A stretch of 64,000 bases of DNA, taken from positions 110,174,001-110,238,000 of the forward strand of contig OX597823.1 of assembly GCA_951406725.2 (NCBI GenBank), read 5' to 3'. This document shows, piece by piece, positions 5,456 to 46,260 of the stretch. The notes beneath the pieces were generated by a model, which was not told where the DNA came from, made no database searches, and saw only the letters and a list, made by a program, of their open reading frames with translations. Each line of letters begins with the position of its first letter. Position 1 is the first letter of the stretch. This DNA is from Octopus vulgaris. Taxonomy: Eukaryota. Both the position numbers and the translations under genes were made by a program.

Positions 5456-6299
5456 GAGAATGAATACAATGTTTTACTATGCAGTCAGAAGAGGGAAATC
5501 AGTGTCCGTGACCGTTTTCCGAGCCTGTGAGAGTGTTCAGAGGAAGGGAGAAACCATTATACTTTCATAGCCTCTGTAACTCTAAATTCTTCACATTTAA
5601 TTTGTTTACCGAAAAGTCCCATACATGAATGCCTACATATTCTCTCATGGTAAATATTCTGGTCGTTAGAATAATAGTTACCTCCCTTTAATTTTATCTA
5701 TCTCTACTTTTGTGGCAAACATGTTCCACCTGGAAATATGGTGCAAAGAATATGCAATTATATCTCGTCATCCTCACCATCATCATCAACTTTGTTATCG
5801 TCGTTGTTATCAACATGGCCGTCGTTTTCACTATCGCTGCCTCTGCCGTCATCGTCCTCCTCATCACTAGCGTCATCGTTCTCATTGAGTTTTTTTTTTT
5901 TTTGGTTCGCCATCCACAATGTTGTCATCTGTCACTGTTTCCACACTCGCGTCTTTACTGTCCCTTTTGGTTGTTTTTTTCTTCTTGCTGCCGTTATTGT
6001 TGTATTTCTTTTAATAGTTCTTCTTGCGCAAACGACGGCAGTGGTGACGTTGTGCCACCCGTGATAGGCTTTTTGCCTATTCTTTCTGCTTCATCATCTC
6101 GTTGGCATAGTGATTGTTTATTACTGCTGCCATCGCTTTTATTGTGGCTGTCATTGTTTTCTTTTGTGATTGTTGTTGCTGGTGTTGTTCTTCCTGGTGA
6201 TGGTGGTGGTCGTGATGCCATTACCGTTGTTATTATCCTTATGGTATATCGAACACGTAGAAAATAGGAAAAAATTATATATATATATATATATGTATA

Positions 6300-20321: not shown

Positions 20322-21255
20322 ATCATAAGGCAGTAAAAGAAAATTACTCTCCCTAGACACAACAGAATATACTTCAACACACGAACTCATATAAAGAATC
20401 TTGCAAACCAAATCCAAAAACGAAATATATATTTGTACTTATATTTATATGCATATCTAAATATATACACATGTACACTCACATACACAAATATACACAC
20501 GTACATGTGTGTTTGTGTGATATTTGTGACTGTCCTTGTATATGTATCTTTGTAGTGGTGGGGTAAGTATATGTGAAATTTATCAATATTTTTATGTTCT
20601 GTAGACTCGCTTTCTTTCAAATCTCATATTGACATAATTTTAAATTTTCAGTTGAGTTTAATACAGTTCATTTTAATTTATTTGACTTCTTTTATTATTT
20701 AGCTTTATAAGAATATGTTCATTGTACAAGAGAAAAAAAATAAAAATACGGCTTCAATTGCTTTTCAAAAATTTCTATGTTAACCGATCCAAAAGCTTTT
20801 GAAATATTTGCGAAAAAAAAGAAAAGAAAGGAAAAAAGAAAACAATAATACCAAAACAAAACAACATAATAACAAAGAAATACGTTAAACCAAAATGACA
20901 AAATTCTATACAATCTCAAAGAAGCTGATTAAACAAGGGGAAAGAAAACAAAAAAATGATTCATATAATGCAAGTAAATAATGACAAAAATATATAGAAT
21001 AAAAGATCATTATTATTTCTTTTTCAAACAAATATATATATAAAGAAATAGAAAGAAAAATATGAAATTTAATCTAAATTTTTTGGCAAAAAGAAGGAAA
21101 CAACAGAAAGAAAAAGTCGTTATCTGTTAATGTTTTATGAGTGAATTCTCTACTTCCGTATTTGTGTTTGTATATTGGTATTTTATGTTCTTTAGTTGTC
21201 TTCCTCTGTCCTTCATTGTCTTGTCATGTATTTCTTTTCTATTTCTCATAGACTT

Positions 21256-25224: not shown

Positions 25225-25558
25225 TAATAAACGAGTGAAGAACAAATATATACTGCATGTGTTTATTTGGCATAAGAATCATCATCCCGAAGTACAGGAA
25301 TCTTGCAACACAAATTCATATAAATATGTATGAATATATATAAGTATATATATATATATATGTATATATATGTATATATATATTATATATAAGTGTATGT
25401 ATATATGTACACACACATATATCTATATATATATTTATATGAATTTGTGTTGCAAGATTTCTGATGTGAAGTCGTGTGTTGAAACATGTACTTCGGGATG
25501 ATGATTCTTTTGCCAAATAAACACACGCACTATATATTCGTTCTTCACTCATTTATTA
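25225..25558. repeat. ~100-bp inverted repeat around a (TA)-rich spacer
   Basis: 25225-25325 is the reverse complement of 25432-25558 apart from a ~24-nt indel. Confidence 0.85.
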
Positions 25559-35992: not shown

Positions 35993-36279
35993 TATGCTAT
36001 GACAGGGACAGGATTGCTGACAATGAAAAATATAGAGTGCATATCCAAAAGGAGAATTAGGAATTTAGTAGCATGCTTAGGAACCTTAAGACAAATGCAC
36101 AAGCAATACTTTGGTATAACCTCTACCTCATAAAAATATACGTATATTTTGACTCAACAAGAAACAGCAGAAACATACATCAAAACGGGTCAACTAGTAT
36201 TAGGAAGAAGGTTTACACAAACAGTAAAGCATAAGTGGAGATGATTATAAAGTGGATAAATGAGGTAGAATGGATACAT

Positions 36280-36925
36280 CTTCTCGACCTAAAGACGTGC
36301 AAGCATCTTAATGAAAGTATAAATTATTGGATAGAGGAGGTTGAGGAATGCATCTACCTTGCAGAAGAAGTGAATATGCCCCGAGACATGGAGAAGATCT
36401 CACGGAGAGTAAAGGAAAGCGTTCTACTCCACGAAAGATGTGGTCAAAGGAAAGCTGGATAGGTCTACTCGCGCCAGTCTCTTCAATGGCACGGTTTTAC
36501 CTGCAATTTTGTTCGAAAGGAAAACTTGGGCCACGACGAAGAGAGAAGAACAGAGGTTGGTGAACTATGGAAAGATCGTTGCTAGAAGTGTCGCTGAAAG
36601 AGCACATCTGGAGTGAATCGATCAGAGATAAATTTGGCGTGAGAGACATCATCACAGAATATAGAAAGCAGAACTTCAGATGGAGCTGGATACGTCGCTC
36701 GGTCCACCGACAATCGGTGGACTCGCGCAGTAATCGAGTGGTAACCGCGTGCGAGGAAGAGGCCACTCGGAAGTCCTCCAAAATGGTGGATTGATGAAAT
36801 ACTGTAAGCGTTTAGAGCTCCGCGGATGAGGAATGCACATTCCAGATGGCATGGAGGGCGTGCCGTGACGAGTGGTGTCGAAACGACGCCCGATCGTCTA
36901 GTCGGTTAAGATTATCAAGGTGAAT
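36280..36925 (+). mobile_element. RTE-clade LINE 3' fragment
   Basis: MERSLLEVSLKEHIWSESIRDKFGVRDII followed by frameshifted RWAGxVAR..DNRWTRAVIEW..KRPLGSPPKWW. Confidence 0.75.
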
Positions 36926-37479: not shown

Positions 37480-39900
37480 AATGTAAAACACTTATAGACG
37501 CGTTTCCCAGTTTGTAGCATCTCACCATAATAATACCAATGGGTGTGGAATGGCAGCGTTCAATGAACTGCTTAGCAGACAAGATTGACCTAACATATGG
37601 CTTCTGAGGAAATGGAACATGATAGATTCTACTCTATCCAAAGAAACTCCATAGACCCCATAACTAGAGGCCTCTAACTTGTTTGCCAAAAACACACAAA
37701 GCAATTATGACCATATTCTACAACAGGTATTACAACATATACAAATAGCAGAAACAACATCGAATCTGGATATTTATTTGTGTAAATGCAGATCATAGCG
37801 AATGGGACTCAAAATTATTAAAGCAAACCATTGCCTGACCTAGAGCCGTCATGATAATACATTTGGCCTAAACTCAACCGAAATTAAGCAACCTCCTCAC
37901 TAACACACTATATCAAACATTCCATGTCAAAATGTAAAACAATCGTAGCAATAAACTGTATAATTAAAACCAGCCCCAATGATCATAGGAAGACCATTGT
38001 TTTCTCTACAATTTAGTCTTGCTCCGACGCCATTAAGAAATTTGTTGAGTGAAAACATCAATCATCAAAGATGCTACGGAAAAACTATAAACCTTCACTG
38101 TAGATGATGTAAAACTATTTACAATATACATTACCCAGTTGGAAAACCTACTAAAATTATTCATCCAAGACACATAATGAGTGTGCTATTAGACAAATGT
38201 GCCAACTCTAATAGATGAATTAACTAAGACAGAGAATATTAAATTAGATACAGATACCGTAATTAGTGCATCAGACTACAATGACCTACAGAAAATATAA
38301 AGTAGATAAAGCGAATCGAATAAAACACACAGAAATGATATAAGGTATTAGGAATGAATATTACAGAAACGTGAGACTAATATTGAAAATTGACCTCAAA
38401 GTTAGAAAGATGGTTGATATACATATACTAAACACCCCGTATAAACTAAAGATTTAGTATAATATATTGCATGTTTATTGAAGAAAAATGAGAAATCTAC
38501 TAACAACGTTCCGAAACCACTACTCCAAAAGAAAAGACTGTACCTGCCAACATGCGAATATATATATTTTAGTCAGTATCAACGACGTCACTAGAAGCAA
38601 TATAAAGAAGCAAGAAAATAGAAAGAGTTTGTGAAATAAGTGAACATGAAGAGAACAAAATCAAAACATTTCTTTTTCTCTATATGTCAATAAACAACAA
38701 CAATAATTTGCAAACTGGAAATTCACGACACTGAAGACAATTTTTAAAATCAAAAGTAAATAAAATAGACGCAGGAGTGGCTGTGTGGTAACTAGCTTGC
38801 TTACCAACCACATGGTTCCGGGTTCAGTCCCACTGTGTGGCAGCTTGGATAAGTGTCCTCTACTATAGACTGGGGCCGATCAAAGCTTTGTCAGTGGATT
38901 TGGTAAATGGGAGCTGAAAGAAACCTGTCATATATATATATATATGTTGTGTCCCACCATCGCTTGACGATCGATGTATGTGTGTTTACGTCCCCGTAAA
39001 TTAGCGGTTCGCCAAAAGAGACCGATAGAATAAGTACTAGGCTTAAAAAGACTAAGTAGTCCTGGCGTCGATTTGTTCGACTAAACGCGGTGCCCCAGCA
39101 TGGCCGCAATCAATTGAGTGAAACAAATAAAGGAAAAATTTTCCCATATTCAATAAAAGAAGTAAAAAGTAATAGAAAAAACGAAAACTTATCTCCCACA
39201 GATAATAAACATGAAAAGAAAACCACTCCATGGCCAACACCTAGCACGTCATGAAAGAGAGGAACTTTGAGTGAAAGCCAATAATAATTTATGAGATCTG
39301 GGCAGGGAGACTCTGATTTAGCTGTACAGGACCAACGTCTATCTATAAATAGTTACAAAGATATAATATAAAAAATGATGCTTTTCGGTATTAATTCCAC
39401 TCACCAAGTGCAGGCAATGCAACTTGTTCAAGGTGAAATTTGATCGCATCTTTTCTAGCTGTCCAATCCTTGCCAATTTGAGAATATCTCAGACACTTCT
39501 GATATACTCATGAATTGTTGACACTTCCACTTAGGCAGTTTATAGCAATGATAGGGAAACAGATAAGCAATAATGATATGACAAATATTGTGACACCGAC
39601 CTTGGTTCTATCATCTACGACATCCATTGATGAATTCGCTAGAAGAGTTCAAGACTAAATTTTCAGATATAATAAAGAACTGGCAAGAAATTTCGTGTAC
39701 TCTGAAAACTATTTCATTATCCTCTCACCTCGAAGGGGAGATGTTGGAGGAACTATAAAATTATAAGGATTTTAGTATGAAATATAAAGGGTGTGTATCA
39801 AGAAAAATACAGCGATAATAAATACTGGGGCAAAAGGTGTCAAAAATACGCAAAAAAGTACTTTAAACTAAGGTTCGAAATGTGGAACATATTGCATTGA
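37480..39900 (+). mobile_element. Old decayed R4/Dong-like LINE interrupted by a SINE
   Basis: Remnants VDDVKLF (~38100), LDKCA (~38190), DRIFSSCPILA (~39440). Confidence 0.5.
38768..39132 (+). mobile_element. CORE-SINE copy
   Basis: Same family as 24495-24896. Confidence 0.85.
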
Positions 39901-40329: not shown

Positions 40330-40740
40330 AGCTATGGTAATATATGCGTTGGTCATTGTAGATTCTGTGTTGCTCACTCATGACCATCGGCCAACTTTCT
40401 TTTCCTAAATTCAGTTTCTTTCTTTCTTTTCTTCTGATCAGCTACAATAGATAAGACGCATCTTTGTCGGTCTCCTGTCAAATCTTGTTTCTCTAGCGTT
40501 CGCCACTTCACATCGTCATGGCTTAACATACCTTACTATTTTCACTGTCCTGTTTTTGTTATCAACTTTGACCCTCCGCAAATCTCAAATCCTATTTAAT
40601 TTGCTTTGCGGGGGCAACTGTTTTGACGAACGCCGCACATCTTGTCATAAATGCTCGAAATGTGGAGTAGATAAAACAGCCGACAACTGACGAAGGGTCG
40701 TTCTTTATGTTGCTTCTCTTGTTAGAAGCATAGAAGCATA
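40330..40740 (+). mobile_element. Penelope-like element 3' end / pseudo-LTR remnant
   Basis: '..ATSHRHGLN' (~40502-40528) resembles the terminal GLN motif of the PLE GIY-YIG domain; 40490-40715 is homologous to the reverse complement of 46020-46255. Confidence 0.5.
40636..40698 (+). ncRNA. Non-circularly permuted hammerhead ribozyme (predicted cleavage after C40641)
   Basis: caca-TC-ttgtc-ataaat-gctc-GAAA-tgtg-(17 nt)-gacaa-CTGACGA-a-gggt; all core nucleotides and three stems present. Confidence 0.75.
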
Positions 40741-45774: not shown

Positions 45775-45822
<48 letters not shown>

Positions 45823-45904
45823 ATATATAAGTATTTGCATATATGCATATATACATACATATATGTATATACGTACATATATATCTATGTATATACTTGT
45901 ATAT

Positions 45905-46257
45905 GTGTGTACAGGACATAAAAAACGTAGACAAAATGAGAAACGAGAACATAAAGAACATAAACATATAAAAGGAACTTTTTTTCGAACCACGGATAAA
46001 ACAATCAGAGAAACGAGACTTGCAACATAGGAACATTCCCTTCATCAGTTGTCCCCATAAGTTGTCCGCGTTTCGAAGGTAGGGACAAGACGCGACATTG
46101 TTAAAACAGTCCTTCCCGCAAAGGGAAGTAGAAACATTTGGAATTTTCTGCCGTGAGGTGGAAGTGGTAACAAAAGCAGGCCAGTGAGAACAAAACAGTA
46201 AAAACAAACGGTGAGGGCTGTTAAGCCAAGACGATGTGAAGTGGAAAACGCTGGATA

Positions 46258-46260
<3 letters not shown>
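45905..46260 (-). mobile_element. Penelope-like pseudo-LTR copy between (TA)n tracts
   Basis: Homologous to 40490-40715 in the opposite orientation. Confidence 0.6.
46038..46097 (-). ncRNA. Non-circularly permuted hammerhead ribozyme (predicted cleavage between 46089 and 46088)
   Basis: Minus strand: tgtcgcg-TC-ttgtccc-ta-ccttc-GAAA-cgcggaca-acttatg-gggacaa-CTGATGA-a-ggg. Confidence 0.75.

Follow-up and report, generated by a model that had tools for sequence, protein, structure and literature searches.

The window, i.e. the whole 64,000-nt stretch of Octopus vulgaris DNA analysed here, contains at 40369..40723 on the forward strand a fragment of a non-coding Penelope-like repeat of about 770 nt, with both ends of the unit cut off. 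Similarity to the fetched copies begins no further upstream than 40363-40369 and ends at 40723, with identities of 76-88%. A branch-point-like motif, a pyrimidine tract and an AG were recognized by eye at 40404..40441 of the same strand; from these letters, a possible 3' end of a retained intron can be suggested, whose partnering donor-like motif sits in the terminal repeat of the unit and is absent from the window copy. Sequence comparison placed a second family copy, of another subfamily, on the reverse strand (45818..46260), as well as two 3' tail fragments of the repeat that lack the ribozyme region described below, at 20349..20472 (reverse strand) and 25373..25487 (forward strand). Decayed LINE-like reverse transcriptase fragments were also noticed by eye on the forward strand, at window positions 36000-36900 and 37480-38600.

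The repeat is present in hundreds to thousands of copies. A 221-nt query on the 2.8-Gb genome yielded 2807 candidates (40 were scored, with identities of 84-88% besides the window itself), and two exact patterns gave 268 and 582 genome matches, their reversed controls none. The unit length of about 770 nt was derived from a head-to-tail tandem at locus L358. Each unit carries a terminal repeat with a splice-donor-like motif and is inserted in (TA)n; within 1.5 kb, 12 of 60 loci possessed an inverted ribozyme region and 7 a second one on the same strand, in a count that includes locus L047 and the overlapping loci L037-L039. Partial tandems, inverted and 5'-truncated partners, microsatellite targets and a terminal repeat are Penelope-like habits as described by Craig et al. 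2021 (PMC8557442). The family is transcribed on both strands in three RNA runs of a related organism. The initial annotation had placed the motif behind the end of a Penelope-like ORF, which was not borne out: among 132 sequences (131 fetched copies and the window stretch), the best protein likeness upstream of the motif reached E 0.45 with a Naiad profile and E 1.6 with two Neptune-type proteins, a single nested Neptune insertion being the exception.

The letters of the hammerhead-like motif are all present on the forward strand with the spacings originally described, namely caca at 40636-40639, TC at 40640-40641, ttgtc at 40642-40646, gctc at 40653-40656, GAAA at 40657-40660, tgtg at 40661-40664 and, after 17 nt, gacaa at 40682-40686, CTGACGA at 40687-40693 and a-gggt at 40694-40698. 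The core in the window is complete, with CUGANGA, GAAA and UH including A15.1-U16.1. A descriptor of this layout, run on both strands, gave one match in the window and no match in 300 shuffled versions of it; the motif is therefore not a product of chance. The blocks follow each other as cut site (UH), GAAA and CUGANGA, i.e. S, G, C, which is none of the circular orders CGS, GSC and SCG of types I, II and III. This non-circular order within a Penelope-like lineage had been recognized correctly, as had its invisibility to standard hammerhead models. An Rfam search of the window gave no match.

The fold was examined in an alignment of 77 copies, left from 81 candidates after four were dropped for large deletions; 46 rows (about 60%) came from loci picked by a pattern that fixes both cores. 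The core is intact in 60 of the 77 copies, and in 17 of the 31 picked without the core pattern; the cut-site triplet is NUH in 75 of 77. All elements of the proposed fold lie on the forward strand, and the motif begins about 65 nt upstream of the start initially assigned. The whole would be closed by P5, whose 5' strand (40570..40575) has its partner at 40694-40699, is 88.5% paired and shows a double change in three of its six pairs (7 cells). Next would follow the P6 hairpin (40576..40611), adjoining both P5a and IIa and supported by covariation, with 10 double changes in each of its two outer pairs, and by the minimum-energy fold. The 5' strand of stem II, IIa, is placed at 40612..40616 with G10.1 at 40612 (10 double-change cells), followed by P4a at 40618..40624, paired with 40673-40679 (91.5% paired, 7 double-change cells, also present in the minimum-energy fold). 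P4 connects the distal ends of stem I and stem II. Downstream, pair counts place IIIa with the UH of the AUC triplet at 40636..40641, the predicted cut falling after C40641, and one stem III pair is A-U in 29 copies and G-C in 23. The 3' strand of stem I, Ia (40642..40646), has 24 double-change cells in its two outer pairs; the stem comprises 5 bp in the window copy and 6-7 bp in most copies. The order would be completed by IIb, the GAAA core and IIIb (40652..40664, from sequence and pair counts), P4b (40673..40679, pair counts), Ib with the CUGACGA core (40682..40693, from sequence) and P5b (40694..40699, pair counts), the last being the strand formerly taken for stem II.

Together these helices form a 42-pair model that is 88.7% paired across the 77 copies and contains 106 double-change cells against 34.6 in shuffles, a value reached by none of 500 shuffles; as the copies are kin, such cell counts overstate the number of events. 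When slid along the alignment, the same model was about 40% paired. Pairs showing a double change numbered 17, which is not above the shuffles (14.7 on average, 100 of 500 as high), an unguided mutual-information ranking placed subfamily signals above most of the true pairs, and RNAalifold recovered stem III and no other stem. In a second alignment, the stem III pair that is A-U or G-C above is U-A in 25 of 44 rows, through a subfamily missed by the first pattern. The second window copy, with IIa at 46115-46111, the predicted cut after 46089, GAAA at 46074-46071 and CUGAUGA at 46048-46042 (reverse strand), has different letters in stems I, III and the upstream stem II, yet all three are paired; its P4b is deleted. 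This is a real, conserved RNA structure. Two further pairings were tried and discarded: a helix pairing the III-Ib linker with the 3' flank, whose strands are accounted for by P4 and P5, and an upstream hairpin sequestering stem I, which varies among copies.

As for the three stems initially drawn, covariation among the copies is indeed present, and stems I and III stand with double changes in the 77-copy alignment, whereas the partner of stem II does not. The strand before GAAA probably pairs with 40612-40616, upstream of the cut, and the strand after CUGACGA probably with 40570-40575 as P5, beside P6. If the motif were instead a plain type-SGC monomer with an uninterrupted CUGANGA, a bulged A and a GGGU:GCUC stem II, the upstream helices would have to be a switch or bystanders. 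The four pairs of that stem II are possible in 90.9% of cells, SGC RNAs of 62-80 nt do cleave during transcription (Eckert et al. 2023, PMC10085705), and IIa of the window copy is weakened and drawn into P6. However, two of the four pairs are G-U, a single double change was found in 77 copies against 10 for the upstream partner, and in the metagenome Naiads treated below the contiguous stem II is missing (0 bp) in 8 of 10 annotated examples and 5% paired in an alignment of five, so that we regard this alternative as quite improbable. Pairing and covariation show the core to be opened between A9 and G10.1, its ends held by P5 and P6. In the metagenome examples both helices adjoin stem II with spacers of 0-1 nt, from which they are read as a four-way junction that would sit atop the core. 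We consider the split-core wiring very likely. A transcript of 40625-40710, which had been proposed for a cleavage assay, would miss IIa, P5a, P6 and P4a. In the minimum-energy fold of the window copy, P6, P4 and III are present (z -2.24) while P6 extends over IIa, which carries one A>G change relative to most copies; with IIa drawn into P6 in this way, this particular copy may be inactive.

It is highly probable that the family represents a hammerhead that cleaves. Indirect evidence comes from the 5' ends of genomic copies, which pile up at the predicted cut. In a first sample, selected by a pattern from GAAA to CUGANGA (40 of its loci picked for linker variety), 19 of 71 copies begin between -3 and +12 of the cut, compared with 4 in the adjoining 48 nt upstream. 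A second sample, selected by a pattern downstream of the core and sharing one copy with the first, has 15 of 71 beginning between -3 and +16, compared with 3 in the adjoining 48 nt upstream. The corresponding rate ratios are 11.5 (p 2e-7) and 9.8 (p 2e-5), with a few of the counted ends being internal deletions rather than true 5' ends. The step fits best at -4 to -6, its edge being blurred where TA flanks match by chance. Internal deletions whose 3' edge lies at or just past the predicted cut were seen separately at L236, L215, L244 and, in a second copy, L185. No comparable step is seen for this genome's Naiads, with 3 of 30 ends in the corresponding interval and 7 in the 48 nt next to it, which limits the claim but also indicates that the method itself does not create a step.

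The pile-up could alternatively have arisen from a conserved, hammerhead-derived structure that no longer cuts, with ends produced by stalling of the reverse transcriptase or by base-pairing between the A/T-rich linker and (TA)n targets. Many ends do lie at +7 to +12 within this linker rather than at 0, the Naiad family lacks the step, and the Poseidon hammerhead is reported to be dispensable for insertion in vitro and to leave no RNA-seq read ends (PMC11167929). On the other hand, unrelated Naiads have retained the complete core together with the NUH triplet, few ends fall in equally A/T-rich stretches upstream of the site, and the step recurs at the predicted site in two nearly disjoint samples; loss of cutting thus appears improbable. 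In the three RNA runs from the related organism, read starts did not pile up at the predicted cut. Five molecules in one of the runs start 3 nt off it, and a loose end 1 nt from it, present in all three runs (35, 45 and 23 reads), looks like the product of one transcribed inverted copy. Such reads were likewise uninformative for Poseidon, whose hammerhead nevertheless cuts in vitro with its protein (PMC11167929).

We also searched for the element that mobilizes the repeat. No parent was found by Naiad endonuclease and reverse transcriptase searches or at unit junctions: copies of the family were located behind the reverse transcriptase on the same strand in 0 of 20 and 0 of 8 Naiad loci and at 0 of 6 unit junctions, and protein likeness was absent around the 6 junctions. 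The window's repeat has no ORF of the autonomous Naiad type (N-terminal GIY-YIG, C-terminal reverse transcriptase), which is present at L125. A Neptune-type element beside one copy, L047, was considered as direct parent and rejected, as of 30 loci of this family (about 19,000 candidates) L047 alone had the ribozyme region; no CUGANGA core is seen in the 3' UTR of the L047 family. Two young Neptune-type families (L137:1045-3396 and L138; L061-L090) were noted in passing, one with intact 784-aa RT-GIY-YIG frames. A different clue is provided by L243:125-435, a three-part chimera in (TA)n. Its first two parts come from the 5' and the 3' region of Naiads, the 3' part beginning at its predicted cut, and the third belongs to the window family and begins 11 nt past the cut of that family. 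The chimera looks like the result of template jumping at cleaved ends. The shared fold, the TA targets and this chimera point to a Naiad enzyme as the probable mover.

The same fold ends the 3' UTRs of Naiads in this genome. It was found, with unrelated sequence, behind the Naiad EN-RT frame at L125, in 7 of 20 divergent Naiad reverse transcriptase loci and in 6 of 8 close ones, three of which had been picked knowing the motif; the motif of the Octopus type has 363 exact matches. About 500 nt past the Naiad end at L125, a separate type I-like core (CUGAUGA, stem II, GAAA) was observed at approximately 5930-5980 of the oriented locus. As an independent test, 80 metagenome loci with Naiad-type reverse transcriptase were collected by profile search (a homolog search with one reverse transcriptase fragment had given none), and in 69 of them the 3' flank reached 250 nt or more. 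A descriptor covering all block orders recovered 9 split-core motifs, two of them nearly identical, and 3 of type CSG on the sense strand, with none on the antisense strand or in shuffles (five each), while CUGANGA itself occurs in 13 antisense and 14 sense flanks. Two more split-core motifs lying outside the descriptor thresholds were found by hand, bringing the fold to 11 of the 80 loci. The remaining flanks are mostly short, and several long ones have no hammerhead core. Rfam gave no match in 20 loci with these motifs or Naiad flanks.

These relatives also bear on the wiring. The upstream stem II has 5-6 bp in the ten annotated metagenome examples and, in the five alignable ones, is 96.7% paired with double changes in 5 of 6 pairs and an invariant G10.1-C11.1. 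The three CSG motifs (L277, core at flank +1027; L278, +772; L280, +967) are clean and include a helix joining stems I and II. A further conserved motif of about 70 nt lies about 250 nt past the stop in Naiads without a hammerhead core (3' flanks of L313, L337, L298, L340, L339, L350, L353 and L327) and in a clam Naiad consensus, with no match in Rfam. It is reminiscent of a twister ribozyme. Directly past the ORF, SECIS-like elements below the Rfam cut-off (E 0.03) were seen at L337:3367-3428 and L298:3505-3567. Naiad selenoproteins are known (Craig et al. 2021, PMC8557442).

The Naiad consensus ends in File S5 of Craig et al. extend this range. By eye, the same helix order is found in a comb jelly, three Acropora, Clytia, two Morbakka, a crustacean and two Octopus consensus ends, and a degenerate form in Euprymna. 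Six nematode consensus ends have a clean type CSG. The spider Naiads (parts 16-17) have S-G-C order with long inserts and an apparently whole C block, and are closer to the SGC type of Eckert et al. This survey covers 58 of 62 matches for one core variant; for the remaining variants it covers 27 of 43, 14 of 23 and 14 of 25. Motifs split by a line break escape it, and species were partly assigned from the file order.

Taken as a whole, the locus is best explained, with a probability of roughly 0.75, as a decayed Penelope-like copy carrying a split-core hammerhead cut after C40641. According to this model, the RNA folds into the split-core hammerhead and likely cuts itself after C40641. Stem III and P4 would form an arm whose loop presents the cut site, Ia and IIb, and whose base presents IIa and Ib-CUGANGA, allowing stems I and II to form as two pseudoknots between loop and base. 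In a tandem transcript, the loop of one copy might then dock on the base of another, in which case two copies would be needed. The cut RNAs would serve as templates for a Penelope-type reverse transcriptase, probably that of Naiads, which would run off at the cut and leave copies starting there.

We give dimer action about even odds. It had been suggested that the stable stem III would make dimerization unnecessary, which the geometry of relatives calls into question. In 6 of the 10 metagenome examples one strand passes directly from stem III into P4, and in a seventh 1 nt intervenes; the two helices sum to 14-16 bp in 9 of 10 (P4 may overlap its neighbours by up to 3 nt). Helices so joined, and of near-constant length, would be hard to fold as a monomer. 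Stem II, core and stem III of hammerheads are stacked as a single rod (Cervera and de la Pena 2014, PMC4209133); P4 would have to bridge the two ends of this rod if a single molecule did everything, and by a rough count 14-16 bp are too short for that. A continuous III-P4 arm, by the same count, suits docking on a second copy. The same split-core fold could also be accommodated within one molecule if the arm bends at an internal loop or bulge. The window family has a loop of 7-8 x 7-8 nt between III and P4 that could serve as a hinge, and Eckert et al. (PMC10085705) observed cleavage of SGC RNAs while noting the same geometric puzzle and leaving it unresolved; against this stand the spacerless strand of the six metagenome examples and the short sum of III and P4. 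A monomer is somewhat less likely than not.

We tentatively propose, as little short of a toss-up, a seventh natural hammerhead topology with an opened A9-G10.1 link and a four-way junction, in which domain-swapped copies act as a dimer and cleavage is confined to tandem transcripts, and which is standard in much of the Naiad clade (comb jellies, cnidarians, crustaceans, cephalopods), nematodes using CSG. If this reading is true, non-circular hammerheads, so far represented by a few hundred environmental RNAs, would be common in animal genomes, and genomic 5' ends would record germ-line cutting. The accumulation of copy ends at the predicted cut is relevant to whether Penelope-like ribozymes act in vivo. 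Non-circular permutations, previously seen in orphan RNAs from the environment, are placed by the present fold in animal retroelements that number thousands of copies. The presence of three layouts (split-core, CSG and probably plain SGC) in one retroelement clade would offer a route to study the origins of permutation.

Compared with known systems, the fold is nearest to type SGC (HRIMA-1 and variants), as Eckert et al. 2023 (PMC10085705) designate the order cut site, GAAA, CUGANGA. Both share the S, G, C order, a short linker between stems I and II, and an extra helix joining the far ends of these stems (P4 here). In type SGC, CUGANGA is directly followed by the stem II strand. In the present fold this strand is found on the 5' side of all the rest, and the gap is taken up by P5/P6; a 5' strand of stem II placed 0-2 nt after CUGANGA can be drawn in this family but is unsupported, and it is absent in relatives. 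The six permutations of Eckert et al. assume uninterrupted blocks, including the A9-G10.1 link, and the split core breaks this stated assumption. SGC is reported there only from metatranscriptomes and from no genome of a known organism, whereas the host here is mobile DNA of an animal genome. Perreault et al. 2011 (PMC3088659) describe core variants with insertions of 1-2 nt, and no description of a split-core hammerhead was found in print outside subscription journals and bioRxiv supplements.

Among Penelope-like elements, minimal type I hammerheads (PMC4209133) also reside in a terminal repeat and are thought to act as dimers in tandem transcripts, but they follow the circular CGS order with a tiny palindromic stem III and have neither pseudoknots nor a split core. 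Naiads (Craig et al. 2021, PMC8557442) have in common with the window family (TA)n targets, partial tandems and inverted 5'-truncated copies; the repeat differs from Naiad 3' UTRs in having no ORF and no sequence likeness beyond the core. Naiads were reported there to be without canonical hammerheads, some being listed with a half core. The 'HHR_half_core' of the octopus Naiad corresponds to the split-core fold, which gives a concrete answer to why Naiads seemed hammerhead-free. The non-LTR retrozymes of animals are likewise non-coding, ribozyme-bearing units with terminal redundancy and tandems, and derive from Penelope-like elements (Li et al. 2026, bioRxiv 10.64898/2026.07.22.740005). They were defined and searched for by type I, with a type I hammerhead in each tandem unit, whereas the window family, which does form tandem units (L358), has a ribozyme of another type. 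Finally, type CSG, of which two metagenome sequences were known (Eckert et al. 2023, PMC10085705), has the same ring of helices opened elsewhere; it keeps the C block whole and does without P5/P6. SGC, CSG and the split-core form are one ring of helices (I, II, III and P4) opened at different points.
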